Assembly: GCA_900770395.1 (NCBI GenBank)
Contig: CAAGKM010000030.1
Location: 423,210 to 487,209, forward strand
DNA: 64,000 nt
Source: an uncultured Prevotella sp.
GTDB taxonomy: Bacteria; Bacteroidota; Bacteroidia; Bacteroidales; Bacteroidaceae
Reading direction: 5' to 3'
The notes under the pieces: model-generated
Seen by the model: only the letters and a program-made list of their open reading frames with translations
The model's database searches: none
What the model was told of the DNA's origin: nothing
Made by a program: the position numbers and the translations under genes
Part shown: positions 15,101-36,412 of the stretch, piece by piece
How positions within the stretch are numbered: position 1 is the stretch's first letter
Layout of the letters: each line of letters starts with the position of its first letter

Positions 15101-15816
15101 CCGCCGCAGGATGGAGCGAGATGATAGCGTTCAACGGTTTTGACGAGGCAAAGACCGACTCGCTCGGACCCTCGGTGTTCTGCTACCTCAACGAGGAGCG
15201 TTTCACCAACGGCGACGTGGTGAACGCTGCTCCATATTTTGTGGCGCAGCTCTACGATGAGGACGGTATCAACGCCTCGGGCAGCGGCATAGGCCACAAC
15301 ATGCAGCTCGTGATTGACGGTGACATGAACAAGACGTACAATCTAAACGATTACTTCACCTACGACTTCGGAAGCTACCAGAGCGGCACGGTGGGATACA
15401 GCATACCTGCTCTTGAGCCAGGCAACCACACGCTGACATTCCGCGCATGGGACGTGCTCAACAACTCTACAACGGCGCAGCTCAACTTCCGTGTGGAGCA
15501 TGGTATGCAGCCCAAACTGATTGACATCAGCTGCACGCGCAATCCAGCGAGGGAGAGCACGCAGTTCTGCATCGTGAGCGACCGCATAGGCACCGACATC
15601 GACTTTGTGATAGACGTGTTCGACATCTCAGGCAGGCATCTGTGGAGCCATGCTGCAACGGCAAACCCGGGAATCGGTGGAGTGTTTGTTGACTGGGACC
15701 TGTCGATGAGCGGCGGCGGACGCCTGTCAACGGGAGTATATCTCTACCGTGTGAGGGTTAAGGCTGAGGGCAGCGCGTATGCCTCGAAGGCGAAGAAACT
15801 GGTAATAACACAATAA
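12190..15816 (+). CDS. porU: Type IX secretion system sortase PorU (C25/gingipain-like peptidase family)
   Basis: 1208 aa with a signal peptide and the C25-like catalytic region (…YTGHGSPHSMSHE…AASCDIT…). It sits directly upstream of porV, the conserved PorU-PorV arrangement. Confidence 0.85.
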   Translation: MCKFRAILLAVMAFVAANGSAQEFFNLTADEVRIDSVLPVFTYTKQLGANFSDSVYEARIAYPEYIEMSKADIERYKRISGKPLPKLPVVNSYVAVDRKQGVLDVAFVPLVKQGGKYKKLASFKLDIIAKARPKRARAAREGQGDVGNAAQRYAAHSVMAMGKWAKIRVPSTGIYNLTADVIRRAGFSNPDKVRIYGYGGNLQPEVLTADYLAETDDLKEVPTVQVGGKRLFWAKGPVYFNGEPMNTTGTGIGNRVRNTYSDYGYYLITEGSGEPAHISSEELLAIADASGYYHNALYEVDDFAWFHGGRHLFNSQAITAGNQATYTINMPQAADDKGKDLSMKVKVVLSADAATSASVTLNGGQLCNMSIGNPALYSEATVVSSVTSTHSSSETLDFTIKNNTAGNLRLDYIWVYRDEAMSLPDIAATTFPSPEFVYGVTNQDLHSHTSADMIIIIPASQNMKAQAERLKALHEQKDGMTVRIVPADEIFNEFSSGTPDATAYKRYLKMLYDRATTAEEAPGYLLLMGDCAWDNRMNCKEWSAYSPDNFLLSYESENSVSHTDNYVTDDFFCLLDDNEAIETTGTYKFTGKMDIAVGRIPASNADEAKIAVDKIVAYANNDNPGIWQNTIVIMGDDGDNNSHMQQAENIAKDIETAHPSYDVRRIMWDAYKMEVSSTGYSYPEVTNIVKDYIANGALIMNYTGHGSPHSMSHEYAITAPDLVKAKNKNLPLWVAASCDITPYDSREDNFGEGALFNSNGGAVAFLGAARTVYSSYNQHVNRNFMQEMLNIDGGKVGMGEAVRRSKNRLVERPSENVSYQDASSNKLQYALLGDPALCLAIPAATAVVDSIDGKPVTEGLRTLKAGEVVTVTGHIENGGVTSESFNGSVTTVVQDVVQHVVCNLSLAAKRASGSDVQPFEFDMRQNNIFKGSDNVRNGRFSFSFAVPKDISYSDETGRIILYAVSDDNTVTAAGWSEMIAFNGFDEAKTDSLGPSVFCYLNEERFTNGDVVNAAPYFVAQLYDEDGINASGSGIGHNMQLVIDGDMNKTYNLNDYFTYDFGSYQSGTVGYSIPALEPGNHTLTFRAWDVLNNSTTAQLNFRVEHGMQPKLIDISCTRNPARESTQFCIVSDRIGTDIDFVIDVFDISGRHLWSHAATANPGIGGVFVDWDLSMSGGGRLSTGVYLYRVRVKAEGSAYASKAKKLVITQ

Positions 15817-15855: not shown

Positions 15856-17028
15856 ATGACAATAAGAAATAAAATAGCAGTAGCGGCGCTCCTTGTGATT
15901 GTAAGCATTGCCGCAAAGGCTGAGGGTGACGGAAAACTTATAAAGTTTAATCCCGTGGACCATGCCGTAATCTCACAGGTGATAGCTCCTGATGCCCGTG
16001 CCGCCGGTATGGGTGATGTGGGTGTCGCCACCGACCCTGATGTCAACTCGCAGTTCTGGAACCCCGCCAAGTATCCGTTCTGCATCAGCCGTGCGGGACT
16101 GTCGCTCAACTACACTCCGTGGCTGCGCCAGCTGGTTAACGACATCGATCTGGCATACGTCTCGGGATATTACCGCATCGGCGACTACAGTGCCGTCTCG
16201 GGCTCTATCCGTTATTTCTCGCTCGGCGAGGTGTTCACCTCTGGTGACGACAATGCCATGTCTGTGAATCCCTACGAGATGTCGGTTGACGTGGCATACT
16301 CGCTTATGCTGAGCGAGAAGTTCTCACTCGCCGCCGGAATCCGCTGGATTTACTCTGATCTGCGCTACGACTACAGCGAGGACTCATCGCCGGCATCAGC
16401 CTTTGCCGCTGACATCGCGATGTACTACAACAACTACATCAACATCGGTCCACGCGAGTGTCAGTTGGGACTTGGTATGAACATCAGCAACATAGGCAGC
16501 AAGATTTCCTATTTCGGCGATGACCGCAGCCAGTTTCTGCCTGCCAACCTGCGCATTGGCGCCTCGCTGATGATACCTGTGGACGAGTACAACCGCTTCA
16601 CCATCGCAGCCGACGCCAACAAGCTGCTCGTGCCCACCGTGCCCGTGCAGAAGGAGGGCGAGAGCGCTTCGGAATATCAGGACCGTGTGGTGAGGGAGTA
16701 CAGCGACGTGAGTTCCATCTCGGGTATATTCAAGAGCTTCGGCGACGCTCCTGGCGGATTTAAGGAGGAGCTGCAGGAGATACAGTGGAGCGTGGGAGCT
16801 GAGTATGTGTATCACGACCAGTTCTCGCTGCGCGCGGGCTATCACCACCAGAGCGAGAACAAGGGCAACAATCAATACTTCACCGTGGGCGGAGGCTTCC
16901 GCATGAATGTGTTCTCGCTCGACGTGGGATATGTCATTGCCACAGCAAAGAGCAATCCTTTGGACCAGACGCTTCGCTTCTCGCTGTCGTTCGACATGGA
17001 CGGCATCAAGGATTTGTTCAAGAGATAA
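15856..17028 (+). CDS. porV: Type IX secretion outer-membrane beta-barrel protein PorV (LptO)
   Basis: 390 aa with a signal peptide and a FadL-like OM-channel pattern (NPAKYPF…); immediately follows porU. Confidence 0.85.
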   Translation: MTIRNKIAVAALLVIVSIAAKAEGDGKLIKFNPVDHAVISQVIAPDARAAGMGDVGVATDPDVNSQFWNPAKYPFCISRAGLSLNYTPWLRQLVNDIDLAYVSGYYRIGDYSAVSGSIRYFSLGEVFTSGDDNAMSVNPYEMSVDVAYSLMLSEKFSLAAGIRWIYSDLRYDYSEDSSPASAFAADIAMYYNNYINIGPRECQLGLGMNISNIGSKISYFGDDRSQFLPANLRIGASLMIPVDEYNRFTIAADANKLLVPTVPVQKEGESASEYQDRVVREYSDVSSISGIFKSFGDAPGGFKEELQEIQWSVGAEYVYHDQFSLRAGYHHQSENKGNNQYFTVGGGFRMNVFSLDVGYVIATAKSNPLDQTLRFSLSFDMDGIKDLFKR

Positions 17029-19579: not shown

Positions 19580-20764
19580 ATGGGAAGACCGAAGAAGACA
19601 ACCAAGGCAAAGGAGCCAGTGCGCATCCGGGAGCGCAAGCTCGCAAACGGCAACAGGAGCCTCTATCTTGACATCTACTCAAAAGGTGTGCGCAAGGTGG
19701 AGTCGCTCGGCGTGTACCTTGTCCCGGAGAACACGCCTCTTGACAGGATACAGAACGAGCACGCAAGGAGCGTCGCCGAGAAGATAAAGTCCGAGCGCAT
19801 CATCGCGCTGCAGAACTACGGCATAGCCAACCTTGACAAGGTGATGAAAGCCTCGATGCCCCTTCTCGCATATCTTGACAAATACGCCAGTGAGGGTAAC
19901 GGGCTGACCGAATCGACCATGAAGGGGCGTAAGTTCATGCGGCGCAAGGTAGAGGAATACCTGCGCTCGACAGGACGGCTCAACGTGTCCATGCTTGAGG
20001 TCGATGTGGATTTCTGCCGGGGCTTCATCAATTTTCTGCGCACGGCGAAGAACAGGCGGCTGAAAAGCGAGGACAGGACGATAAGCAACTGCACGGGACT
20101 TCAGACACAGGCGGTGTTCACGGCGGCGTTGAACACCGCCCTGCGTGACGGCATCATCGAGCGCAACCCCATGACCCTGCTGACATCCAAGGAACGCTTC
20201 CACCAGCAGGAGAGCACAAGGGTCTATCTCACCATCGATGAACTGAAAAGAATGATGGCCACCCCATGCGATGACGAAGAACTGAAAAAGGCTTTCCTGT
20301 TTGCCTGTTTTACGGGGTTGCGCCTAAGCGACATCCGCACGTTCACATGGAACAAGGTGCTTACGACACCCAACGACTCCACCCGTTATATAAGGGTCAG
20401 GATGCTCAAGACGCAGCAGGTCATCAACGTGCCTCTTTCCAAGGATGCCCTCGGCTATCTCCGTGAGACGGAAGACCGCAACGAGCCGATCTTCCGCCTG
20501 TCAAGAGCGGTCTCCGTCATAGAGCAAAGACTGGCTGAATGGGCGAAAGCGGCCGGAATAGAGAAACATGTCACCTTTCACGTGAGCAGGCACAGCTACG
20601 CTACGATGATGCTGACCATAGGAGTTGACATCTACACCGTCAGCAAGCTGCTCGGACACAAGAATGTGGCGACAACGCAGATATACGCGAAAATTATCGA
20701 CCAGAAGAAGATTGATGCCGTCAACATGATGGACAGGTTTTTCGACAAAGACAGGCAGGCATGA
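19580..20764 (+). CDS. Tyrosine-type site-specific recombinase/integrase (Bacteroides transposon-type)
   Basis: 394 aa with an N-terminal Arg/Lys-rich arm-binding region, a SAM-like domain, and a C-terminal catalytic domain with R…HxxR…Y (HVSRHSYATMML…LLGHKNVATTQIYAKI). Confidence 0.9.
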   Translation: MGRPKKTTKAKEPVRIRERKLANGNRSLYLDIYSKGVRKVESLGVYLVPENTPLDRIQNEHARSVAEKIKSERIIALQNYGIANLDKVMKASMPLLAYLDKYASEGNGLTESTMKGRKFMRRKVEEYLRSTGRLNVSMLEVDVDFCRGFINFLRTAKNRRLKSEDRTISNCTGLQTQAVFTAALNTALRDGIIERNPMTLLTSKERFHQQESTRVYLTIDELKRMMATPCDDEELKKAFLFACFTGLRLSDIRTFTWNKVLTTPNDSTRYIRVRMLKTQQVINVPLSKDALGYLRETEDRNEPIFRLSRAVSVIEQRLAEWAKAAGIEKHVTFHVSRHSYATMMLTIGVDIYTVSKLLGHKNVATTQIYAKIIDQKKIDAVNMMDRFFDKDRQA

Positions 20765-21906
20765 AGATAGAGATAAGGACACGCGAGCTGAAGAACGGCA
20801 ACAGGACAATTTACCTTGACTATTATGACAAAGGCAAGAGGTGGTACGAATATCCCAAGCTGTACCTTGTGCCGGATTCCGCCCCTTATGCGAAGGAACA
20901 GAACAGGAGCGCGATGGACAAGGCAATCGCCATCAGAGCCAGGCGGCTGCTCGGCGAGGCACCGGAAGAGGACGGCAACCGTCCGAAAGACAAGTCCGGC
21001 AAGATGCTTGTCAGCACATGGATGGACGGATATGCCCAAGCCATGCATGCAAACGCGGGGCTTTCCTCCACATACCTCAAGCATTTCGACACGCTCATCC
21101 GCATGGTGAACGGCTATCTCGCACACATCAAAAGCCCGCGTCTCACGATGGACTGCATAGACAGGGATTTTTACCGGGGATTCCTGCACTACATGACCGA
21201 TGTCTATGAGTGCCGGACTTCCGACGGCGGGACAAGACGGCTTGCAAAATCGACCATGCACCTGTTCCAGCTGAAGATGAACACGATGCTCAACCAGGCC
21301 GCAAGGGAGGGTGTCATCAAGTGTAACCCTTATCATCTGCTGTCAAGGAACGAGCGGATAAAAAAGCCGACAGACCGGCGCGACTTCCTGACCCGCGAGG
21401 AACTGCACAGGCTGATGGAGGTTGAGACGCGGAGCATCACAACCAAGACTGCGTTTTTGTTCAGTTGCTTCACCGGCCTGCGCTACAGTGACCTGAAACA
21501 GTTGAAGTGGGGCAACATCGAACAGTCACAGTCCGGGATGGTGATAAGGATAGAGGCGATGAAAAAGACGGAAAAGCCCGTGACCGTCCCTTTGGGCACT
21601 AATGCGATGGCATGGCTGCCCGAGCGCGGCGACAAGACACCCGATGATTTTGTCTTTGATTTAGGCACATGCGGAGGCTGCAACACCGTCCTGAAGAATC
21701 TGGCGAAAAAGGCAGGAATCAACAAAAGGGTCTCTTTCCATACCGGGAGGCACAGCTTCGCAACGCTCACCCTCGCCGCCACGAATGACATTGCAACGGT
21801 GAGCAGACTGCTTGGACACACCTCTGTCGCAACGACACAAATCTATGCGGAGGTGCTGATGGAGGACAAGATTGCAGCCGTAAACAAACTGCACGGTATC
21901 TTTTAA
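20761..21906 (+). CDS. Second tyrosine-type recombinase/integrase (paralog; start overlaps upstream stop, ATGA)
   Basis: 381 aa with the same architecture (FHTGRHSFATLTL…LLGHTSVATTQIYAEV). Confidence 0.9.
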   Translation: MKIEIRTRELKNGNRTIYLDYYDKGKRWYEYPKLYLVPDSAPYAKEQNRSAMDKAIAIRARRLLGEAPEEDGNRPKDKSGKMLVSTWMDGYAQAMHANAGLSSTYLKHFDTLIRMVNGYLAHIKSPRLTMDCIDRDFYRGFLHYMTDVYECRTSDGGTRRLAKSTMHLFQLKMNTMLNQAAREGVIKCNPYHLLSRNERIKKPTDRRDFLTREELHRLMEVETRSITTKTAFLFSCFTGLRYSDLKQLKWGNIEQSQSGMVIRIEAMKKTEKPVTVPLGTNAMAWLPERGDKTPDDFVFDLGTCGGCNTVLKNLAKKAGINKRVSFHTGRHSFATLTLAATNDIATVSRLLGHTSVATTQIYAEVLMEDKIAAVNKLHGIF

Positions 21907-25051: not shown

Positions 25052-25507
25052 ATGGAACACGAAGATACTTCCATTCAGGAAAATCAGGAATCCGGGCAGG
25101 AGAAGCCCGTTATACGGCGTGACAAGGTGGTAGTCACCAAAGTCACGGAGCAGGAGCTGTTGCGGATTAAAGGCACGGCGGAGCAGTGCGGCATGACACG
25201 CAGCGACTTCATACGGGCAAGGGCACTCGACTACAGACCGAGGAAGCGGCTTTCGGTTACGGAGGTGGACGGCCTCAGGCAGCTTGCAGCATGTCGGACG
25301 GACATGGTGAACTTCGCCAACGCCCTGCACGGGCTGAACGACAACGAGAAGATACGCCTTTTCCGGCATCAGCCCACCATGCTCGAATGGTACGAGAAAG
25401 TGGCGCATATCACAGACCGTGTCACGGACTTTTTGCAGTCCGCGCAGAAGGCGAACAGCTATCCTGCGGAAACAACAGATGAAGAAACAAAGGAGGACGA
25501 GATATGA
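25052..25507 (+). CDS. Relaxosome accessory protein (MobA/MobC-like, Bacteroides-type)
   Basis: 151 aa; …LLRIKGTAEQCGMTRSDFIRARAL… is a ribbon-helix-helix-like region. The stop overlaps the relaxase start (ATGA), as in Bacteroides mobA-mobB pairs. Confidence 0.65.
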   Translation: MEHEDTSIQENQESGQEKPVIRRDKVVVTKVTEQELLRIKGTAEQCGMTRSDFIRARALDYRPRKRLSVTEVDGLRQLAACRTDMVNFANALHGLNDNEKIRLFRHQPTMLEWYEKVAHITDRVTDFLQSAQKANSYPAETTDEETKEDEI

Positions 25508-26763
25508 TAGCCAATGCAAAATCCATCAGCCACGGCATACGGGCGATATTGTATGTGTCGGGCGAGTCGAGGAACAAGAAACATCCGGAGAAGATAACTC
25601 GCATCTGCGACAACTTCATGCCACAGGGCATGGACGCTTCGGGTATCTGGACGGAGATGAAGTTCGCCACGATGAACCGCCCCGACATCAAGAATGATGT
25701 CATCCGCATGGAGATAAGCCCGGCGATGGAGCACACCGGGGACTTCACCGTCGAGGATTGGCGGAAGCTGTGGTGTGACTTCGCGGCGGCTTACGACAAC
25801 CAGACGATACTTGACGATGACGGCAAGGTCATTTCCGTGCCGACCAACATATCGGGCAGCAAGTCCTCCGTGTGGCTACATCTTGAATCCGACAGCGGCA
25901 TACCCCACCTCCATGCCGTAGTGTGCCGGATTGACGAGAACGGGAACATCAACAACGACCACGCCATCCACATCAGGGCACAACGGGCTGCGGAAAAAGT
26001 TGCCCGACAAAGAGGATGGACGACCGCCATGCAGATACACGAAAGCAACATTCCCAAGGTTAGCGCCGACTGCATGGACGCCTTGCGCGAACTGTCCGAA
26101 TGGTCATGGGAAGGTTACAAGGAAAGGCTCGCCGCCAGAGGCTACGAGCTGCATCAGCGCAAGGATAATGAGAAGAACATACGCGGCTATGTGCTCTGCA
26201 AGGGGAACACGAGGTTCAAGGCTTCGGAACTTGGAAAGGGGCGCAACCTGACCGCATCCCATATCATACAGACATGGGAGAAGCTGCATCCCGAAAAGAC
26301 TGAGCAAGCGAGCTTGACACCAAAACAATCTGTTGTAACGACACCGAACTCACCTGCCACAAAAGAACACGCACCACTGTTACAGTCCGAAGTGCAGCAT
26401 AACAATCCAGCTTATGAGGATTACACAGAATGGCAGTCCGACCGCCTGCGCACGGAGTTCGAGCATGACGGCAGGAACTACGACCGCTATATCCCCGGAA
26501 AGGTGCTCGACTGCCTGAATGACGAGTTCGACCACCGGGAATTGGCGAACTGGCAGGCTTTGCAGAATCTGGCTGTGGCCTTTTTTACCCTTGTCGCCTC
26601 TCCTTATGGGGAGATGTCCGGCGGTGGCGGAGGCAGCTCGCAGTCCGACCTCAAATGGGGGCGCGACCCGGAAGAGGACGAGATTGAGTTTGCCCGTCGT
26701 TGTGCACGTGAGGCTTCGCACAGGATTGGCAGACAAATGAAATCAGGAATGAAACGCAAATGA
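25504..26763 (+). CDS. Relaxase/mobilization nuclease (MobB-like, MOBP-type)
   Basis: N-terminal MIANAKSISHGIRAILYV (the catalytic-Tyr region typical of MobA/VirD2-like relaxases) and the His triad …HLHAVVCRID. Confidence 0.85.
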   Translation: MIANAKSISHGIRAILYVSGESRNKKHPEKITRICDNFMPQGMDASGIWTEMKFATMNRPDIKNDVIRMEISPAMEHTGDFTVEDWRKLWCDFAAAYDNQTILDDDGKVISVPTNISGSKSSVWLHLESDSGIPHLHAVVCRIDENGNINNDHAIHIRAQRAAEKVARQRGWTTAMQIHESNIPKVSADCMDALRELSEWSWEGYKERLAARGYELHQRKDNEKNIRGYVLCKGNTRFKASELGKGRNLTASHIIQTWEKLHPEKTEQASLTPKQSVVTTPNSPATKEHAPLLQSEVQHNNPAYEDYTEWQSDRLRTEFEHDGRNYDRYIPGKVLDCLNDEFDHRELANWQALQNLAVAFFTLVASPYGEMSGGGGGSSQSDLKWGRDPEEDEIEFARRCAREASHRIGRQMKSGMKRK

Positions 26764-27409: not shown

Positions 27410-28081
27410 TCATATTTTGTTCCCCAACCGATAAGCCTTGTCTCCATAATCCGTGTTGCGCACCGAACCTGCCGTCCAGACACCGGGTGCGAAAACTTCG
27501 CCTACACTTTCCCAGCCGAGGTAATCCATCATTGTGCGATAGTGCTGGAGCATGGGCTCTGCATCGCTTTTAGCAGTGTTCGCGTATGTCATCAGATAGG
27601 CAGCTTTCTTGTAATGCCCCTTGATTTTCCCGTTGATGGCATAGAAACGGTCAATTACCTTTTTCATCTGCGCGGAAATACCAAAATAATACATAGGAGT
27701 AGCGAAAACCACCATATCCGCCTCAATAAGATGCGGACGGAGTTCGCTGAAATCATCATCGAAGATGCACGGTCCGTCCATACCGCAACGGTTGCACGCA
27801 CGGCACGGCTCCACCTGCTTGAAAGCACAGTCGAAACGATAGACCTCGTGACCTTTCTCTTGTGCCCCTTTTATGAACTGGTTCGCGAGAAAAGCGGAAT
27901 TTCCGTTACGGCGGGGGCTACCTGTGAGAACTACTATTTTCATTTTATCTTGTTTTGATTCATTAGAAACTGACGGGTTATCATCAACACTCATTGCCGC
28001 CAAGCTATGAATAGCACTGCCCGCAAGGAGTGTGCTGCTTACGGCAAATACAGATTTCTTTATAAAATCCCTTCTTTTCAT
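27410..28081 (-). CDS. Twin-arginine (TAT) signal flavoprotein, NADPH-dependent FMN reductase / iron-sulfur flavoprotein-like
   Basis: MKRRDFIKKSVFAVSSTLLAGSAIHSLAA is a TAT-type signal. Flavodoxin-like fold (KIVVLTGSPRRNGNS…) and a Cys cluster (CRACNRCGMDGPC). Confidence 0.7.
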   Translation of the reverse strand: MKRRDFIKKSVFAVSSTLLAGSAIHSLAAMSVDDNPSVSNESKQDKMKIVVLTGSPRRNGNSAFLANQFIKGAQEKGHEVYRFDCAFKQVEPCRACNRCGMDGPCIFDDDFSELRPHLIEADMVVFATPMYYFGISAQMKKVIDRFYAINGKIKGHYKKAAYLMTYANTAKSDAEPMLQHYRTMMDYLGWESVGEVFAPGVWTAGSVRNTDYGDKAYRLGNKI

Positions 28082-28111: not shown

Positions 28112-28966
28112 TTAATTTTCCGGCTGAAAATCCTTGATGATGTTTAATGCTTTCAGTGCGGCAGGGAAGCCGATATAAGGCATACACTGGATGACGGCAG
28201 CCGTCACTCTCTCCTTACTGTTGCCGGCCCTCAGATTGGCGCGAAGATGTGCGTGAAGCTGCGGCTCAGCTCCGATTACGGTCAGAACGCAGTAAGTCAG
28301 CAATTCGCGAGTCTGCGTATCGAGACCGCTTCGTGTCTGAAAATCGCCGAAATGAACCTCCGTCAGAAAGCGCGCAACCTTTTCACCCATGCCGCCGGGT
28401 ACGTCCTTCAATGCCTCTTTCATCCGGTCTCCGTAAAGCGGATATTGGATTTCATGCCCTTTCTCGTAACGGTTCCCTTCCGTAACGGTTGCCTGTGTTT
28501 CAAGCGGCACTTTAATTCCGCGCTCCGTGAAGGCTTCATTAACCGCAGTCATCGCATTAAGGACTTTTGGGAAGCCGATGATGGGAGCGCACTGGTAAAC
28601 TGCCTCGCGCAACTCTATGGGAGTGACCCCGACATTGAGGGCGGCTCCGGCATGTCCTTTCAGTTGGGGTAATTGCTGCATGGTGGCGAGGCATACGCAG
28701 GTAATCATCTCACGTGTCTTGATGTCCAAATCTCCTGTGCGGAACACCTCTCCGAAAATATATTTTTGGAGAATATCCATAATTTCCGGGTCTGTACCGC
28801 CTCCATTAAGTGCCTCACCGCCGAACAAAACCTTAAAGTTTTCCTTGCACAATTCTATCCTGTCCATCGTATTCTCTTTTTTTATGTCATTCTCTGCCGT
28901 TTGTGCTGTAGCCGAAGCAAATCCGAAGACGGAGAGAACTATGATTGCCAATATGTTTTTTCTCAT
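28112..28966 (-). CDS. Carboxymuconolactone decarboxylase (CMD/AhpD-like) family protein, tandem CMD domains, Sec signal
   Basis: Two AhpD-like repeats (…IGFPKVLNAMTAV… / …IGFPAALKALNII…) and an N-terminal signal (MRKNILAIIVLSVFGFASATAQ). Confidence 0.8.
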   Translation of the reverse strand: MRKNILAIIVLSVFGFASATAQTAENDIKKENTMDRIELCKENFKVLFGGEALNGGGTDPEIMDILQKYIFGEVFRTGDLDIKTREMITCVCLATMQQLPQLKGHAGAALNVGVTPIELREAVYQCAPIIGFPKVLNAMTAVNEAFTERGIKVPLETQATVTEGNRYEKGHEIQYPLYGDRMKEALKDVPGGMGEKVARFLTEVHFGDFQTRSGLDTQTRELLTYCVLTVIGAEPQLHAHLRANLRAGNSKERVTAAVIQCMPYIGFPAALKALNIIKDFQPEN

Positions 28967-28989: not shown

Positions 28990-29832
28990 TTATTCTGTTA
29001 CTGCCCGAACGGAATGACCGATATAGCGGCGGGTATTGCGGTTCCCGAATTGCTCTTTTGAATAGAAATAAAGATAATAAGCGAAATCAGAATCCGATGG
29101 ATATAATGTTCCCGTCCAATAGCAGCCGCGCTGTCTGACCTGATTGGATATTTTGTCACCTGTTCTCGATGCTCCTGCCGGGAAAAATATCGAGTTTCCG
29201 TTAGGACCTGTTGCCCTGCGTCCGTTTATACCATTCAACTCCGTCCATTCCCAAGTGCAGTTGTCAACCAATTCCTGCACCTCTTCCTGTGTAGGCATCC
29301 TCCAATTTTCGCCCCACTGCACGTAAGCAATATCGTATTCGGTGCCACAGATGTTTTCAGGAGGAGTATCTGAGGGATAATCATTGAAATCCGTAGTTTG
29401 TTTTTCTCCGGTCGGGTCTGCCCATCCATATAGTCCGCCGTATTCTTCAGGAGTTGCGGCTCCGATGTTCCAAGCAGCCCATTTTACGCTCAAACCTAAA
29501 TCCACGGCTTCGGCAATACTTACCGTATTGGCCTCAAATTGTGCTTGTAGGCTTACATCGTGAGCAGGCATTCTGAACGAGTATATAGATTCAGATGAAA
29601 CCATTTCTTCGGCTTCATACCATCCGGCAAATATATAGCCGTCATCTGCCGTAGCGGTCACGGTCACTTCTTCCTCCGGAATATAAGTTGACTTTTCCGT
29701 GGTTACCGTACCACCTTCTGTAGAGGAAATGGTAAGTGTGTAAGAAACCGGTTCATTAACATCATCACTACAAGAGCAGAGACAAAAAAGGACTACAAGT
29801 AATGCGAATATCGTTATCTTCAAATTTTTCAT
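28990..29832 (-). CDS. Lipoprotein with a Fibrobacter-succinogenes-major-paralogous (Fib_succ_major) domain
   Basis: Lipoprotein signal (…CLCSCSDD), …GENWRMPTQEEVQELV… and a C-terminal …YIGHSVRAVTE, matching the FISUMP pattern (GWRLPT…SVRCV). Confidence 0.65.
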   Translation of the reverse strand: MKNLKITIFALLVVLFCLCSCSDDVNEPVSYTLTISSTEGGTVTTEKSTYIPEEEVTVTATADDGYIFAGWYEAEEMVSSESIYSFRMPAHDVSLQAQFEANTVSIAEAVDLGLSVKWAAWNIGAATPEEYGGLYGWADPTGEKQTTDFNDYPSDTPPENICGTEYDIAYVQWGENWRMPTQEEVQELVDNCTWEWTELNGINGRRATGPNGNSIFFPAGASRTGDKISNQVRQRGCYWTGTLYPSDSDFAYYLYFYSKEQFGNRNTRRYIGHSVRAVTE

Positions 29833-29843
29833 CTTTGATTATT

Positions 29844-30857
29844 TTATTCATTAAACAACTCACGGGCATTCTCGGAAAAGAACCGCTCCGTGTATGGAGC
29901 CAACTCCTTGTCGGCGGCAAACTGTTCACGCATCCGTTTCAGATTCCCCTGCAACACATTGTCCGGCATATACGGATAATCCGAGCCGTAGAGAATATGT
30001 TCAGGAGTGGTGATGGTCAGCATCATCTTCACGATTTCAGGACTTGCACCTCCGGCAAGGTCATAATACAGACGCGAAAGGTTAGCCTCCCAGTCAATCT
30101 GCCCCATAAACCCTTTGGCAAGCATTGCCGGGTGAACGGCTTTCATACGGGGTATAGCCATAGGTAGAAATGATCCGCAATGCGGTACAACGACTTTGAC
30201 ATTGGGATTCTGCGCCAACACATTGCGAGAAATCATATTGATGACCGCACGGGTTGTTTCAGCCGGATATTCATAGACTGCAAGCGGAGCGGTGGCAATG
30301 ATACCGTCATTGACCGGAGTGGGCTTGTGCGGATGGATGATAATGACTGCATTTCTGTCGTTCAGCACCTTCATCAACGGGTCAAGCGCCTTGTCACCGA
30401 GATATTGCCCCCGGCTGTTTGTCGCCAGTTTCACTCCGTCCGCTCCCAATGTATCGAGCGCATAAACAGCTTCCTCTATGGCCGCATTGACATCCGGCAG
30501 GGGCAACGCAGCGCAGAACTTGAATTTCCCCGGATACTCCTTCTTCAAACGGGCGCAATACTCATTGTATTCACGGATAACCCGTCTGCTTTCCTCCGTA
30601 TCCCCAAACCACGGCTGAGGAGCGGGCATAGTCAGCACCGAACATTCTATCCCGGCATTCTGCATAAAAGCGATATGCGATTCCACATTCCAAGCCGGCA
30701 ACGGGAATGTCTCCTCCATTGCGGCATCGTGTTTTTCCAGCACAGCCATATATTCGGGCAGGATGTTATGGCAATGCACATCAATGGTCTGCCCGAATAC
30801 CGAAGGGCTGATGAAGAGAGCGGACATAGCCATTAGCAAAATCAGTTTTCTTCTCAT
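29844..30857 (-). CDS. Amidohydrolase-2 family (ACMSD-like metal-dependent hydrolase/decarboxylase), Sec signal
   Basis: Signal MRRKLILLMAMSALFISPSVFGQ. IDVHCHN… metal-binding start typical of the amidohydrolase_2 TIM barrel. Confidence 0.75.
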   Translation of the reverse strand: MRRKLILLMAMSALFISPSVFGQTIDVHCHNILPEYMAVLEKHDAAMEETFPLPAWNVESHIAFMQNAGIECSVLTMPAPQPWFGDTEESRRVIREYNEYCARLKKEYPGKFKFCAALPLPDVNAAIEEAVYALDTLGADGVKLATNSRGQYLGDKALDPLMKVLNDRNAVIIIHPHKPTPVNDGIIATAPLAVYEYPAETTRAVINMISRNVLAQNPNVKVVVPHCGSFLPMAIPRMKAVHPAMLAKGFMGQIDWEANLSRLYYDLAGGASPEIVKMMLTITTPEHILYGSDYPYMPDNVLQGNLKRMREQFAADKELAPYTERFFSENARELFNE

Positions 30858-30863
30858 ATCGGA

Positions 30864-31355
30864 TTATTTACCGCTGTTAATAGTTTCAAGCCACTCCGAA
30901 AACTGCCTTTCAGACAAAGGTCTGTTCAGCAATTTTCCGGAACACCAGTCTATTTCAGGATAGGCTTTGCGCAGATTTTTCTCACAGTTGGCAATGCCGC
31001 TGCCGCCCGAAGTGGCAAACGGTACCACTTTCTTACCTGCAAGGTTGTGGCTTTCAATGAACGTGTTGATGATAGTCGGTGCGATGTACCACCATACGGG
31101 GAAACCGATGAACACCACATCATACTTCTCCATACCGGACACCCGCCCAGCAATGGCAGGACGGGAAGTCACATCACGCATCTCCACGGAACTACGGCTC
31201 TGGCGATTATTCCAGTTCAAGTCTGCATCCGTGTAGGGTTGCTCCGGTACTATTTCATGTAAATCGGCGTTAGCCACGGCCGCCAGTTCACGGGCAGCCT
31301 CCCTTGTCGTACCGCTACAAGAGAAATAGGCGACCAATATTTTTTTACTACTCAT
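30864..31355 (-). CDS. Flavodoxin (Flavodoxin_4-like), cytoplasmic
   Basis: [20 protein letters not shown]…[11 protein letters not shown]…; the likely start is the internal MSSKK (the track ORF runs to 31394). Confidence 0.75.
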
Positions 31356-31372: not shown

Positions 31373-32317
31373 TTACACCATAGGCATTTCCCAAGAGCCT
31401 CTTGTATCGACTCCGGTACTCTCTGCCGCATTTTCCAGAGTGTTCATCTCCTCCTCAGTCAGCGTCACCTTTATAGCTTCCAACGCATCCTGAACCTGAA
31501 CAGGCTTAGTCACGCCGATAATCGGGGTCGTGCCTTTGCCAATCGCCCAAGCCAAGGCAACCTGTGCCGGTGTGATGCCGTATTTCTCGCCGACAGTACG
31601 CATAACGGCAATGAGTTTTTCAATCTGAGGCAACAACGGATTATAGGTGTCACCACGTTGGCTTCCGGCAGGCAGCGGGTGGGCGGTGTCATATTTTCCG
31701 CTTAACGCGCCTTGCTCCAGCACCATGTAAGCCCAGAAGTCAATGCCGTTTTCCTTGCAATAGTCAAGGATGCCGGCTTTCTCCGATGAACGGTAAAGGA
31801 GGCTGAAGTGATTCTGCACTGCGGAGATATGCACACCCTCTTTGGAAAGGATTTCTTCAGCACGCTTGATCTGTGTAAGGTTGTGGTTGGAGACGCCTAC
31901 ACGTCTTACCTTGCCGCTTTTCACGAGGTCGGCGAGGAACGGAGTCCATTTCTCCACATCAGCAGGATTGTGAATCCAGTAAATGTCGATATAGTCTGTG
32001 CCGAATCGTTCGAGGCTGCCGTTGAGCATATCTTCCACGGGATTGGCAGACTCACCGGCAATCTGAGGAGTGAACTTCGTTGAGATAAGCACATCCTCGC
32101 GATTGCACTCTTTGGTAAATGCGGCGAGTACGTTTTCCGAAGCGCCCATGCCGTACACCACGGCTGAATCCCACAGGTTCAGCCCTCCGGCCATTGCCGC
32201 ATCGAATACGGGCTTCAGTTCATTCACGCCGAGGTTGTTCCCGAATACCTGATCGCCTCCGGCGAATCCTGCGCCCCACGACCATGTGCCTAATGCTATT
32301 GACGGTTGATTTTTCAT
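31373..32317 (-). CDS. Aldo/keto reductase
   Basis: LGTWSWG…, conserved AKR catalytic tetrad context, [12 protein letters not shown]. Confidence 0.9.
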
Positions 32318-32363: not shown

Positions 32364-33002
32364 TTAACGTATGAAATTCGTCATAGTATGCTGTTCATGC
32401 ACCGGGAACTCTATGCCGTGTTCACGCCCTGTTGCGATGCACTTCAGCAACCATGCCATGTTTCTTGCAAGTGTGCGCATGGTCTGTAGCCCCTCAACAT
32501 CCCGGCGGATTTCATCCGGTGTATTCCCGTGGACTACGTTCCAGTATTGCGACGGTACGATAGGCATATTGCAGTCGGTCATATATTTGTTCATCTGATC
32601 AAGTGCAGCCGTTGCACCGCTACGGCGACAAGTTGCTATTGCAGCGGCAGGTTTCCCGGCAAAGTGGTCGCCATTGTACTCGTCAATCAGAAACACCCTG
32701 TCAAGGAACGAGGTCACGGCACCGCTTGCAGCCGCATAGTGTACGGGAGTGCCGAACACGAAACCGTCATACTCATCCATTATCTTCACGAACTCGTTGA
32801 CTTTGTCGTTTCGGAAGCAGCTACGCTTACCCACGCACGCCCCACAGCCGATACATCCGGCTAACGGCTGATTGCCAACCCAGAATATCGTCGATTCGAT
32901 TCCCTCGCTTTTGAGCGTGTCGGCAATTTCCGACAAAGCGGTGTGAACACATCCGTCCTTGTGAGGGCTTCCGTTTACCAATAATACTTTCAATGTGTTC
33001 AT
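32364..33002 (-). CDS. Flavodoxin-like NAD(P)H-dependent FMN reductase / iron-sulfur flavoprotein
   Basis: KVLLVNGSPHKDGCVHTAL… with a Cys cluster (CIGCGACVGKRSC) and FGTPVHYAAASG. Confidence 0.75.
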   Translation of the reverse strand: MNTLKVLLVNGSPHKDGCVHTALSEIADTLKSEGIESTIFWVGNQPLAGCIGCGACVGKRSCFRNDKVNEFVKIMDEYDGFVFGTPVHYAAASGAVTSFLDRVFLIDEYNGDHFAGKPAAAIATCRRSGATAALDQMNKYMTDCNMPIVPSQYWNVVHGNTPDEIRRDVEGLQTMRTLARNMAWLLKCIATGREHGIEFPVHEQHTMTNFIR

Positions 33003-33015
33003 ATTCTTGGCCTTG

Positions 33016-33204
33016 TCATTTGTTCATATCAGGCAGGAGGACACCTCCGACTCCCACGTTCTCAGGTTCGTTCTCCTTGATGAAGACGAAGATTACATTT
33101 TCGGGAAGCCCGGTAATGCGTGATGTCGATTCAGTGACTTCTTTGACCAACTGAGCTTTCTTCTCCTTGCTCATCTTGACCAGTTCCATTGTTATTGAAG
33201 GCAT
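33016..33204 (-). CDS. 4-oxalocrotonate tautomerase family protein
   Basis: 62 aa beginning MPSITMELVKMSKEKKAQLVKEVT (Pro1 catalytic residue). Confidence 0.7.
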   Translation of the reverse strand: MPSITMELVKMSKEKKAQLVKEVTESTSRITGLPENVIFVFIKENEPENVGVGGVLLPDMNK

Positions 33205-33238: not shown

Positions 33239-33802
33239 TTACAGGTTCTCTTCACGGAATTTCTTGCCGAATGAAGTGCATTTGCCTATCATCTCGCCGG
33301 TACGCAGGTAAGAATAGGTGGGCATCTCGAAGAGGACGGGCTTCAGTTTGTTGTAGTCCACCTTACCGGCCTCGTTGAGCATATCTTCCTCGACGTATGT
33401 GTTGGATATCTTGCAGATGAAGTTGTCGAAAGTCTCCGTTTCATAGTTCTCCACGGCTTCACACTCCATAATCAAAGGGCTGTCCTCTATTACGGGAGTG
33501 CCGGCTTCTCCGGGATGCCATGCGAAAACCTGCGACTTGTCAACTTTTGCACCGCTTGTAATACCTACATAGTCAGCACGGGGAAGCAGAGCTTCATCAA
33601 CAATGTTCACGGAAAGATGCCCGGTCATTCTAACACCAAGGTTCGTGTGATGTGCTTTGTGCAGACTGACAAGAATGCGATCGTGCCCGATGATGCCTAT
33701 ATGACCGGCAAGCAACCAGGTCGGCTTGTCATCTATCATTGTCCCCACAACAACTGCCGGTGTGGGATAAAGGGCTAATACAGATCCGATGTTCTTTTTC
33801 AT
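33239..33802 (-). CDS. Flavin reductase-like (FMN-binding split-barrel) protein
   Basis: …LALYPTPAVVVGT… and the split-barrel pattern. Probable start MKKNIG at 33802; the track ORF extends to 33841. Confidence 0.7.
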   Translation of the reverse strand: MKKNIGSVLALYPTPAVVVGTMIDDKPTWLLAGHIGIIGHDRILVSLHKAHHTNLGVRMTGHLSVNIVDEALLPRADYVGITSGAKVDKSQVFAWHPGEAGTPVIEDSPLIMECEAVENYETETFDNFICKISNTYVEEDMLNEAGKVDYNKLKPVLFEMPTYSYLRTGEMIGKCTSFGKKFREENL

Positions 33803-33921
33803 TTTTCTTGAAGTATTATGCTGTTTATAAATCTGTTGCAAAGATAGCGTGCTTGCTGCAAATAGACTGTATCCGTATTACGGACGATAGTAACTGCATT
33901 ACGGTATCTTCTGCGCGTGTG

Positions 33922-34410
33922 TTATTTTACCGCTTCGGAATATTCCTCATCCGTTACAGGATTGAGCCAGGTATTCTTGTTGGTCTGCGGATTACATTCG
34001 ATAGCCAGATGTGAGAACCAGCTGTCGGGAGTCGCCCCGTGCCAATGCACTACGTCAGGTGCTATTTCGACCACATCACCGGCTTTAAGCCGTCTTGCGG
34101 GCTTGCCCTTTTCCTGATAATAACCCTCGCCACCGACACATACAAGAATCTGTCCGCCTGTATGACTGTGCCAGTTGTTGCGGCATCTCGGCTCGAACGT
34201 CACATTCGATACAGGCACATTCAGTTCCTTCATAGAAGTCAGCGGGGCCAGCCATGAGCGGCCGCTGAAATATTGCTCGTATGCGACATTCGGTTTGCCT
34301 GTGGGGAATGCGCTGATTTCCGGTACTTCTGTTTCCATATTCTTATTGCTGTTACAGCCGGCAGCCAGTATAACAATCGCTGCGGAGGCCAATAGTTTTG
34401 AGATTCTCAT
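33922..34410 (-). CDS. Cupin-domain lipoprotein
   Basis: Lipoprotein signal (…ILAAGCNS); cupin motifs (HSHTGGQILVCVGGEG…HWHGA). Confidence 0.7.
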   Translation of the reverse strand: MRISKLLASAAIVILAAGCNSNKNMETEVPEISAFPTGKPNVAYEQYFSGRSWLAPLTSMKELNVPVSNVTFEPRCRNNWHSHTGGQILVCVGGEGYYQEKGKPARRLKAGDVVEIAPDVVHWHGATPDSWFSHLAIECNPQTNKNTWLNPVTDEEYSEAVK

Positions 34411-34435: not shown

Positions 34436-35239
34436 TTAGCGGTTTATCATTATTTTCTTTGATACCGTATGTGTGCCGGAACTGACCTGCGCCAGATAGA
34501 TGCCTGATGTAAGTGCGGAGGTTTCAATTAAGTTTCGGGATGATTCCAACACCTTGCTGCCGGAAAGGTTGTAGAGCGCAACTCTATCAAACTCACCATC
34601 TATATAAATCGTGCCGGATGCGACATTGATATTCACGTCTTTGTCACTCACAACAGATTCTACGGCACTTGCAAGCGTATTGTAGTCAATCTGCTCCAAC
34701 CAGTTGGCAATTAAAGAATGACTGTTGGATGTTTGAGCGGAACGAATCCAAAGACTTGGTGTTACGAAGTCTCCATTCGGTATAAGACGGTGTGCATCGG
34801 CTTCCACTCCGCTTATCCCACTGCTCGCGCTCGAAACGATAAGTCCTATTTTCTTGCCTGCCATTTTTGCCCCGTTATGGAAAAGGAATGTCTGCATCGG
34901 CGCGGCCATATTGCTCCACCATAACGGTGCGGCCACAATTACCATATCATACTCATCGAAATTCACATCCACCGGCTTGATTCTGGGATAGGAAGCCGCA
35001 TCATCGGGATTGTTGCGGATCGCCGAGATTAACGCGCTGCCAATGGCATAATTGTTGGCGGCATAGTCCAGCCCTTCTTCCGAGGGTTCTATTCTGACCA
35101 TATCCGCTCCCGTCTGCGCCTGCAAATCGGTCGCGATGGTGTGGACATTGTTTGTAAAGCTGTAGTAAACTATCAGCGTTTTCGCGTTGATGGTGATTGC
35201 TGTAAGTGCAACGACCAATGTCAGGATTAACTTTTTCAT
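34436..35239 (-). CDS. Exported flavodoxin-like (Flavodoxin_4) protein with a T9SS C-terminal sorting domain
   Basis: Sec signal (MKKLILTLVVALTAITINA). Flavodoxin_4-like core (TLIVYYS…VIVAAPLWWSNM…), paralogous to 30864-31355. C-terminal about 75 aa (…VALYNLSGSKVLE…GIYLAQVSSGTHTVSKKIMINR) looks like a T9SS type-A CTD. Confidence 0.65.
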   Translation of the reverse strand: MKKLILTLVVALTAITINAKTLIVYYSFTNNVHTIATDLQAQTGADMVRIEPSEEGLDYAANNYAIGSALISAIRNNPDDAASYPRIKPVDVNFDEYDMVIVAAPLWWSNMAAPMQTFLFHNGAKMAGKKIGLIVSSASSGISGVEADAHRLIPNGDFVTPSLWIRSAQTSNSHSLIANWLEQIDYNTLASAVESVVSDKDVNINVASGTIYIDGEFDRVALYNLSGSKVLESSRNLIETSALTSGIYLAQVSSGTHTVSKKIMINR

Positions 35240-35481
35240 TTTCGTAAACCTTTTTAATGTTGATACTTATTTTTCTGGTGCAAAGGTAAGGGACTTTATT
35301 GGTAATGGCTGTATCTGCATTACGGACAAGAGTGATTATATTACGGAATGTTATCGTCATACACAAATCTCTTACAACCAAGCGTGTATGCCATATATGA
35401 AATTTGTACGAATCTTACGGATATTTGTAACTGTATTACGGATTTCATACTCTGCCATGCGTAATTCCCATCTAAAATAGC

Positions 35482-35489
35482 TACCTTTG
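35482..35489 (+). promoter_or_regulatory. -7 box TACCTTTG for the AraC regulator (divergent from the cargo operon)
   Basis: TAnnTTTG, 24 bp before the ATG at 35513. Confidence 0.45.
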
Positions 35490-35512: not shown

Positions 35513-36412
35513 ATGAAAGAGGTAATAAAGGTCAGCACAATCGACCAATATAATAAGCTGTTCGGGCTGGAAACCTTGCATCCGTTGGTTTCCGTTGTCG
35601 ATTTGTCGAAAGCCCCGATATGGCCGGATCATTTTCGCTTCAATTATGGGGTATATTGCATCTATCTGAAAGATGCGAAATGCGGAACTATCCGATACGG
35701 ACGGCAGAACTACGATTATCAGGAAGGTAGCATTGTCGCCTTTGCTCCTGGACAAATCGCCAATGTCGATATGGAGCGGGGTATGAAACCGTCGGGTCTG
35801 GGCGTACTATTCCACCCGGATTTACTTCGTGGGACACCGCTTGGCAGAGAAATCGACAGGTATTCGTTCTTCTCATACGATGTGAACGAGGCACTGCACG
35901 TTTCGGAAAGAGAAAGGAAAATCCTCGTGGACTGTATTGACAAAATCGCTTATGAAATGGAACATTCGATAGACCAGCATAGCAAGCGGTTGATTGCAAC
36001 AAATATCGAATTGTTCCTTGACTACTGTATGCGGTTTTATGACCGCCAGTTCATCACGCGCTCAGAAGTTCACCACGATGTACTTGTGAAATTTGAGCGG
36101 CTGTTGGACGAGTATTTCAAAAACGAGCATTTACGCAAAAACGGTTTACCGCAAGTGCGATACTTTGCCGATAAAGTATGTCTTTCACCTAATTATTTCG
36201 GAGACCTTATAAAGAAAGAAACCGGCATGACCGCTCAGGAATATATTCAAAACAAGATAATCAATGTTTCCAAAGACTGGGTCGCAAACACTAATTTGAC
36301 CGTCAGTCAGATAGCATACGAACTTGGATTCCAGTACTCCCAACATTTCAGCCGTGTCTTTAAGAAAAGCGTGGGATGCACGCCTTTGGAGTATAGGAGA
36401 GCACAGGCATAG
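35513..36412 (+). CDS. AraC-family transcriptional regulator
   Basis: C-terminal double HTH (…QIAYELGFQYSQHFSRVFKKSVGCTPLEYRR) and an N-terminal cupin-like ligand domain. Confidence 0.9.
   Translation: MKEVIKVSTIDQYNKLFGLETLHPLVSVVDLSKAPIWPDHFRFNYGVYCIYLKDAKCGTIRYGRQNYDYQEGSIVAFAPGQIANVDMERGMKPSGLGVLFHPDLLRGTPLGREIDRYSFFSYDVNEALHVSERERKILVDCIDKIAYEMEHSIDQHSKRLIATNIELFLDYCMRFYDRQFITRSEVHHDVLVKFERLLDEYFKNEHLRKNGLPQVRYFADKVCLSPNYFGDLIKKETGMTAQEYIQNKIINVSKDWVANTNLTVSQIAYELGFQYSQHFSRVFKKSVGCTPLEYRRAQA

Follow-up and report, generated by a model that had tools for sequence, protein, structure and literature searches.

Known cargo of the type IX secretion system (T9SS) consists mostly of proteases, glycosidases, nucleases and adhesins, and the closest precedent with a redox fold is P. 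gingivalis HBP35, which joins a thioredoxin-like motif to a C-terminal sorting domain (CTD). The sortase PorU and the outer-membrane shuttle PorV are both needed for cargo with a type A CTD. Flavodoxins of the Flavodoxin_4 family have been described outside the cytosol in Firmicutes, where a Ser or Thr within a beta1-alpha1 insertion is flavinylated by ApbE (PMC11334425, mSystems 2024), and this was the sole literature found on extracytosolic Flavodoxin_4. The gene considered here touches both systems. It lies in a 64,000-nucleotide stretch of DNA from an uncultured Prevotella sp. (contig CAAGKM010000030.1, positions 423,210 to 487,209), called the window below, and encodes a flavodoxin-like protein with both an export signal and a T9SS CTD. 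The original prediction for this gene had called the combination unusual, and the literature agrees: a search for T9SS, periplasmic or extracellular flavodoxins gave nothing relevant, and no flavodoxin appeared as T9SS cargo.

The reading favoured here, which we would give an about even chance, is that the encoded domain binds flavin mononucleotide (FMN) non-covalently, reaches the cell surface through T9SS and belongs to an inducible redox or detoxification island. Extracytosolic Flavodoxin_4 as such is already known; new here is one predicted to be both untethered and T9SS-targeted.

Architecture and family of the exported protein

A complete open reading frame (ORF) specifies a 267-aa product whose four-part layout was confirmed: a Sec/signal peptidase I (SPase I) signal (residues 1-19), then a core resembling Flavodoxin_4 (20-185) and, behind a disordered linker, a type A T9SS CTD (203-267). 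The signal, core and CTD named in the original prediction were upheld by hidden Markov models (HMMs), profile and predicted structure, and the Pfam, NCBIfam and BLASTP matches of the ORF, PorU and PorV are far from chance. An AlphaFold2 model, built on a 34-sequence family alignment, has a mean predicted local distance difference test score (pLDDT) of 83. In this model, residues 1-17 form a low-confidence helix off the fold (pLDDT <50), residues 20-185 a confident five-strand alpha/beta domain (mostly 84-94) and residues 203-265 a seven-strand beta-sandwich, while residues 193-199 are disordered (<50). PorU cleavage likely falls within the linker (residues 186-202), at a site that can only be inferred.

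The core matches PF12682 (Flavodoxin_4) in Pfam over residues 20-184 and profile positions 1-155 of 155 (E=6.1e-14, 52.2 bits against a cut-off of 24), and has no match to the Flavodoxin_1 HMM. Its resemblance to a cytoplasmic paralog (30867-31355, minus strand), first noted by eye from a shared PxWW region, is borne out by BLASTP, with 28% identity over 167 aa including that region (E=4e-15). The paralog is a canonical Flavodoxin_4 protein (269 bits in Pfam) and scores 242.9 bits with the NCBIfam 'flavodoxin' model NF005501, whereas the exported protein reaches 66.6 bits, below the cut-off of 198, and therefore belongs to a separate clade. Foldseek comparison of the core with the PDB returned 4ICI, 3KLB (FMN complex), 4J8P and 3EDO (FMN complex) at E values of 5e-9 to 5e-8, with target-normalised template modelling (TM) scores of 0.75-0.78 (0.78 for 4ICI, 0.75 for 3KLB and 0.77 for 3EDO).

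Conservation in the family is concentrated at the FMN-binding positions of Flavodoxin_4. The three FMN loops align to 3KLB without gaps, and their invariant residues are S27, T29 and N31 in the phosphate loop, P105, L106, W107, W108, M111, A112, A113 and P114 in the PLWW loop, and S136, S137, S139 and S140 in the SSASSG loop. Mean column entropy is 0.33 bits for beta1 and the phosphate loop, 0.44 for the PLWW loop and 0.33 for the SSASSG loop, the block lowest in entropy, against 0.70 bits for the whole core and 1.7-2.2 bits for signal, linker and CTD. A further clade-specific motif (residues 51-68), whose role is inferred, aligns through the family profile to the EGTFDADMYK segment of FMN-bound 3EDO. 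The family alignment contains no invariant Cys or His. Exported relatives that are 55-60% identical keep the canonical S-x-T-G-N loop, and T-N-N and T-G-N loops are about equally common among clade representatives (37 vs 33). The original prediction offered extracellular redox or a repurposed non-flavin fold as possible functions; the conserved loops, together with the exported T-G-N relatives, favour retained flavin binding over a repurposed fold, and flavin binding is probably retained.

Export is predicted from an N-terminus (MKKLILTLVVALTAITINA, followed by KT after the cut) in which a basic KK n-region leads into 14 hydrophobic core residues and positions -3 to -1 read I-N-A, and which has neither a twin-arginine nor a lipobox. 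Signal and cleavage-site calls are rule-based rather than taken from a trained predictor. Signal-peptide heuristics are passed by 107 of 114 family members; Ala precedes a conserved K/R-T-L in 113 of the 114, with a signal length of 19 residues in 88 of these, and no twin-arginine occurs in the 114 and no lipobox in the family. In the wider clade, nearly every full-length top match opens with a signal of the SPase I type or a lipoprotein Cys and a low-complexity linker. From these near-universal export signals, this branch of Flavodoxin_4 as a whole is predicted to be extracytoplasmic.

The CTD is picked up independently by sequence, profile and predicted structure. PF18962 (Por_Secre_tail) matches residues 208-265 in Pfam (30.6 bits, cut-off 27), and TIGR04183 matches residues 215-266 of 267 in NCBIfam (30.5 bits, cut-off 23). 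Foldseek places the tail on 8GLK_D, the CTD of a T9SS-trapped substrate (target-normalised TM 0.73, 31% identity, rmsd 2.5 Å), and also on the RgpB CTD 7PQ4, while the family profile matches the CTDs 8glk_D, 7pq4, 5hfs and 5ag8 by sequence alone. The domain is modelled at pLDDT 76-89, and its signature residues G215, F217, G227, K229, G246, Y248 and K262 are invariant or nearly so in the family, although at 1.82 bits it is the least conserved folded part. The original prediction hinged on a CTD HMM match and a cleavable signal, of which both were found, the signal by rules; porU and porV, which it had placed in the window, are indeed encoded there (Table 1).

The family is large, auto-annotated and uncharacterised, and is common in gut Bacteroidales rather than a one-off. 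A search across 5.8 billion proteins gave 4055 matches, the best 120 clusters of which are all about 267 aa long and 57-97% identical, 69 of them with a precomputed PF18962 match. When each GTDB species is represented by a single genome, relatives are encoded by at least 539 stretches. The species-locus counts given below cover the best 80 of these, which are labelled Bacteroidales (Prevotellaceae, 'Porphyromonadaceae', Muribaculaceae, Paludibacteraceae and Rikenellaceae-type) with one exception, an 'Oscillospiraceae' metagenome-assembled genome. This locus, L012 (CAVDNW010000020.1), is the best GTDB match, with 88% identity, the same operator layout and the same RCC1-repeat neighbour as in L006, and is probably a mis-binned Bacteroidales or mobile-element contig. 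Cultured carriers include Phocaeicola barnesiae DSM 18169, Lepagella muris and Palleniella muris, which makes the function directly testable.

A search with the core only, across 1.84 billion representatives at 50% identity, returned 2290 matches at E<=1e-3 and 76 at E<=1e-30. The exported core is modular in relatives, where it is fused to Cyclophil_like2, to a calcineurin-like metallophosphoesterase (with or without Cyclophil_like2) or to a dockerin type I domain; such fusion proteins (P0125, P0129, P0136, P0143, P0148, P0128 and P0147) reach 888 aa. The gut betaproteobacterium Turicimonas muris has a 192-aa member with a signal peptide (P0124/P0270) that is 60% identical to the core, which suggests that the exported form has been transferred between phyla.

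Neighbouring genes and the regulatory region

The gene opens a co-directional cluster that reaches about 27410 and diverges from an AraC-family regulator (Table 1). Export signals are found in six of the 11 cluster products (the CTD flavodoxin, cupin, Amidohydro_2, Flg_new_2/Lcl_C, CMD and FMN_red with a twin-arginine translocation (Tat) motif), and these are interleaved with clearly cytoplasmic reductases. The last of them (27410-28081) has a 46-residue N-terminal extension starting MKRRDFIKKSVFAVSSTLLAGSAIHSLAA, in which KRRDFIK fits the twin-arginine consensus; the TAT_signal HMM does not match it, and the protein is probably a Tat-exported flavoprotein by its N-terminal sequence.

Table 1. 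Features of the gene and its surroundings in the window.
Feature	Position	Strand	Basis
Complete gene, exported flavodoxin-like protein with T9SS CTD	34436..35239	-	ORF list, Pfam, NCBIfam, >120 full-length homolog clusters
Signal peptide MKKLILTLVVALTAITINA, residues 1-19, predicted SPase I cut before K20	35183..35239	-	Sequence rules
Flavodoxin_4-like alpha/beta core, residues 20-185	34685..35182	-	PF12682, AlphaFold2, Foldseek
beta1-alpha1 loop at phosphate-binding position, S27-F-T-N-N-V-H33	35141..35161	-	Gap-free alignment to S-C-S-G-V-T-K of 3KLB
Clade-specific motif EPSEEGLDYAANNYAIGS, residues 51-68	35036..35089	-	10/18 positions invariant; mean entropy 0.37 bits
Loop P105-L-W-W-S-N-M-A-A-P114, equivalent of the PVWW isoalloxazine loop of Flavodoxin_4	34898..34927	-	Aligns to PVWWYIAPT of 3KLB
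Loop S136-S-A-S-S-G-I-S143, equivalent of the T-S-G-G-S-G-I loop of Flavodoxin_4	34811..34834	-	Alignment to 3KLB (TSGGSGI)
Variable linker, residues 186-202	34634..34684	-	pLDDT <50 at 193-199; highest regional entropy, 2.19 bits
Type A T9SS CTD, residues 203-267, seven-strand beta-sandwich	34439..34633	-	HMMs, Foldseek, family profile
porU	12190-15816	+	NF033707, 959.5 bits
porV	15856-17028	+	NF033710, 511 bits
AraC-family regulator, divergent	35513..36412	+	HTH_18 73.9 bits, HTH_AraC 65.2 bits
TACCTTTG box, candidate Bacteroidetes -7 element, 42-49 nt upstream of start codon	35281..35288	-	Match to TAnnTTTG
Candidate AraC operator, two pairs of TTACGGA direct repeats	35320..35442	+	21-nt spacing in pair, 95 nt between pairs
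Cupin lipoprotein (LAAG/C)	33922-34410	-	Pfam/NCBIfam, N-terminus
Flavin_Reduct	33239-33841	-	Pfam/NCBIfam
4-OT tautomerase	33016-33204	-	Pfam/NCBIfam
FMN_red	32364-33002	-	Pfam/NCBIfam
Aldo/keto reductase (AKR)	31373-32317	-	Pfam/NCBIfam
Cytoplasmic Flavodoxin_4	30867-31355	-	Pfam/NCBIfam
Amidohydro_2 with signal peptide (VFG/Q)	29844-30857	-	Pfam/NCBIfam, N-terminus
Flg_new_2/Lcl_C lipoprotein	28990-29832	-	Pfam/NCBIfam, N-terminus
CMD with signal peptide (ATA/Q)	28112-28966	-	Pfam/NCBIfam, N-terminus
FMN_red/Flavodoxin_2, Tat motif	27410-28081	-	88.9 bits; N-terminus

L006-L008 keep the gene order behind their 89%-identical ortholog, apart from four additional genes that lie between. Around distant members, the AraC-associated clusters are rich in Flavodoxin_4 paralogs, cupins, CMD, hexapeptide transferases, Tat-signal AKRs and tatA/tatC, and one such cluster encodes a NapH-like polyferredoxin. 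Within 6 kb of the gene in the 80 species loci, AraC-family regulators occur at 48, hexapeptide transferases at 35, cupins at 31 and Tat-type AKRs at 24. The domain also occurs as a 521-528-aa fusion of Flavodoxin_4 with a BD-FAE/Abhydrolase_3 esterase (L004 3703-5289 and L005 293-1858), near Tat-signal AKRs, a NapH-like polyferredoxin (Fer4_5) and tatA/tatC. This fusion hints that the islands act on esterified plant phenolics.

In Bacteroidetes, the -7 promoter consensus is TAnnTTTG. The TACCTTTG box has seven copies in the window against 1.5 expected; a mirror copy lies upstream of the AraC gene (35482-35489, plus strand), inside an 18-nt inverted repeat, and in orthologous loci the box stands at -49 or -39. 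Between the mirror-image boxes, the 273-bp intergenic region holds the TTACGGA pairs (repeat families D1-D3), and four of the window's 11 TTACGGA copies (5.1 expected window-wide) fall inside 123 bp. The operator layout is identical in L006-L008 and L012, whose orthologs are 88-89% identical, and the 21-nt-spaced pair is kept in L014-L016 at 75-78% identity. It is plausible that the region is an AraC operator with two Bacteroidetes-type promoters, both as candidates. A sigma-70 promoter and terminator scan stayed at shuffle level and is uninformative for Bacteroidetes.

Two tyrosine integrases in tandem (Arm-DNA-bind_5, Phage_int_SAM_5, Phage_integrase) lie just downstream of the operon together with an MbpB-like mobilization protein (19580-21906 and 25504-26763, both plus strand). 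The L006 ortholog is flanked by different genes, and L011 also has a nearby integrase. An integrative mobilizable element may thus carry the island, but a look for its boundaries turned up no tRNA and no clear GC step. The only long flanking direct repeat, of 29 nt (19507-19535/40921-40949, 83% identity), was considered as att sites and rejected, as it holds the TACCTTTG box and would enclose housekeeping genes, the MsbA-like and MiaB genes among them; it most likely represents two similar promoters.

Possible functions and their weighing

According to the favoured reading, transcription would start at the gene's own promoter, controlled by the divergent AraC-family regulator through binding to the paired TTACGGA repeats. 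The product would be exported unfolded via Sec and its signal cut after Ala19, as sequence rules and the uniformity of the family suggest. It would then fold in the periplasm and take up FMN non-covalently in the three-loop site, with no ApbE tether. Judging from family membership, T9SS would recognise the type A CTD and PorU would remove it, leaving the domain released or surface-anchored. The weakest step comes last: with its flavin, the domain of about 19 kDa would transfer electrons or act as a reductase at the surface, within an inducible island in which cytoplasmic reductases and exported enzymes work side by side, the probable targets being redox-active or electrophilic small molecules such as quinones or plant phenolics. 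Of all this, the analysis establishes the domain architecture, the fold, the breadth of the family, the operon and the T9SS genes, while flavin binding, secretion, anchoring and substrate are predictions.

Several points weigh against this sequence of events. The window shows no electron route across the outer membrane and no evident donor or substrate, and the chemistry assigned to the operon is a guess based on family names. A proteomic lead, a 21-kDa 'flavodoxin' listed in outer-membrane vesicles of T. forsythia and predicted to be periplasmic (PMC4604654), could not be tied to the clade. The phosphate loop reads S-F-T-N-N-V, with Gly changed to Asn and the final Thr to Val while canonical length, Ser and Thr are kept, and these losses could weaken or abolish FMN binding. 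It has also been argued that exported flavodoxins, unlike cytosolic ones, are flavinylated to prevent flavin loss (PMC11334425), and the flavinylation insertion and motif are both absent from this protein. Finally, the CTD HMM scores lie only 3-7 bits over their cut-offs, and at 39 of the best 80 species loci the ortholog has a shorter C-terminal tail, which escapes the T9SS models.

In these short-tail orthologs (about 240 aa; L036, L043-L045, L048-L055, L058-L064 and others), a tail of about 40 aa, …FTxYTLSGxxL…LxxGLYIINGKKxxIxx, replaces the 65-aa CTD. It has no match at E<=1 to TIGR04183, PF18962 or the type B and type C models. By its sequence it looks like a CTD without the first two strands, and it could be an unrecognised short sorting signal. 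The same short tail ends many multidomain relatives (P0125, P0129, P0148).

The altered phosphate loop is the starting point for a rather unlikely alternative, in which flavin binding has been lost and the pocket serves another ligand or a non-redox activity. This would fit with a conserved motif at residues 51-68 that is absent from 3KLB-type proteins, with an NF005501 score well outside the canonical group (66.6 bits vs a cut-off of 198) and with Sec export, which delivers an apo-protein. However, all three cofactor loops are canonical in length and character, PLWW and SSxSSG are invariant, T-G-N clade members are otherwise 55-60% identical, the motif has its counterpart in FMN-bound 3EDO, and no invariant Cys or His suggests a new catalytic or metal site. 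In another alternative, the domain would bind environmental riboflavin, FMN or flavin adenine dinucleotide (FAD) without redox chemistry, at the surface or in the periplasm, whether to scavenge them or to maintain a local supply from which other exported flavoproteins are loaded. The conserved FMN-type site, the predicted extracytoplasmic location and the lack of a visible electron conduit to the surface are compatible with such a role, the other exported flavoenzyme-type proteins of the operon need cofactor, and the metallophosphoesterases fused to some relatives could in principle process flavin nucleotides. Yet most Bacteroidota make riboflavin, and the conserved neighbours are regulators and oxidoreductase-type enzymes. 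A TonB-dependent receptor was found within 6 kb at none of the 80 loci, with two queries that divergent receptors could escape, and the annotated homolog loci showed no flavin transporter. The fused metallophosphoesterases were considered as FAD pyrophosphatases and rejected, since NCBIfam puts them near cyclic-nucleotide phosphodiesterases and not UshA. Capture or holding of flavins is thus an unlikely role.

A different question is where the domain ends up and how its cofactor would be held. The marginal HMM scores, the weak conservation of the CTD and the short tails in about half of the related species could mean that the CTD is decayed or non-functional and that the protein stays in the periplasm, where the Tat-exported enzymes of the island would be plausible partners. 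This is set against a beta-sandwich predicted with confidence (pLDDT 76-89) and similar to solved CTDs, one of them caught in the translocon and 31% identical, with signature positions invariant or nearly so and both PorU and PorV present; a CTD of about 65 residues kept in dozens of species also argues for selection, and periplasmic residence seems quite improbable. As for the cofactor, Bacteroidales do have ApbE, for Nqr and Rnf. The extracytosolic Flavodoxin_4 proteins of Firmicutes are ApbE substrates (PMC11334425), so covalent attachment of FMN was considered here too. It was rejected: the gap-free alignment to 3KLB leaves no beta1-alpha1 insertion, and the [ST]G[AS][ST] motif is not conserved, with five sporadic occurrences at non-homologous positions in 120 family members. 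No ApbE family member was found among the operon products of the window, the part of it scanned for the family, or in the annotated homolog loci. Covalent flavinylation is accordingly very remote as an explanation. With insertion, motif and apbE neighbour all lacking, the clade is, as far as sequence can tell, an exported, untethered exception to the published flavinylated proteins.

The favoured reading can be extended, at low probability, to a flavin-based extracytoplasmic electron-transfer system in gut Bacteroidales, of which the exported, unflavinylated clade would be the outward part. Electrons would pass from periplasmic members (lipoprotein Flavodoxin_4, Tat-exported FMN_red and AKR and a NapH-like polyferredoxin) to the T9SS-anchored surface flavodoxin, which would reduce extracellular quinones, phenolics or other acceptors. 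If true, a diderm would here carry out extracellular electron transfer with neither multihaem cytochromes nor a covalent flavin tether. Even short of this, an exported yet untethered clade would mean either that tight non-covalent flavin binding suffices outside the cell or that these domains do something else, and both outcomes are informative. The AraC-controlled islands could also bear on how gut bacteria handle dietary phenolics, quinones or drugs.

Comparison with known systems

The Firmicutes proteins flavinylated by ApbE (Anaerocolumna xylanovorans SHO45324.1 and Desulfosporosinus lacus WP_073032509.1; PMC11334425) share with the Prevotella protein the PF12682 domain, an extracytosolic location and a presumed role in flavin-based electron transfer outside the cytoplasm. 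They differ in having the insertion with its flavinylated Ser/Thr and an adjoining apbE, whereas the Prevotella protein has a loop of canonical length, no motif and no apbE neighbour, and comes from a diderm with a T9SS CTD.

With the solved Flavodoxin_4 structures from Bacteroides and Lactobacillus (3KLB and 3EDO/2MWM with FMN; 4ICI; 4J8P), none of which has a published function, the protein has the fold and homologous cofactor loops in common. It differs from them in its identity of 19-25%, in the Gly to Asn change in the loop and in the added signal, linker and CTD. Lipoprotein-signal Flavodoxin_4 paralogs of the canonical YFSATGT type, about 187 aa long, adjoin the CTD gene at several loci (L017 6821-7384, L001 9836-10399, L066 and L091). 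The L017 paralog matches 4ICI at 233 bits from just past its lipobox and FMN-bound 3KLB at 186 bits; therefore these bacteria do have near-canonical FMN-type domains with predicted export signals. The match also suggests that both 4ICI and 4J8P are mature forms of exported Bacteroides proteins, 4ICI seemingly of a lipoprotein-type paralog.

Classical flavodoxins (Flavodoxin_1; C. beijerinckii, D. vulgaris) share the fold and the S-x-T-x-N-x loop after beta1, with a Foldseek E of about 3e-5. They are, however, cytoplasmic low-potential carriers that keep the loop Gly, and the Prevotella protein has no Flavodoxin_1 match.

With type A cargo of T9SS (P. gingivalis RgpB, F. johnsoniae NucA; CTDs 7PQ4, 5HFS and 8GLK), the protein shares a Sec signal, a TIGR04183/PF18962-type beta-sandwich of about 65-75 aa at the C-terminus, and PorU and PorV encoded in the genome. 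The known cargo being hydrolases and adhesins, a surface redox domain of the cofactor type would widen the range of what T9SS delivers.

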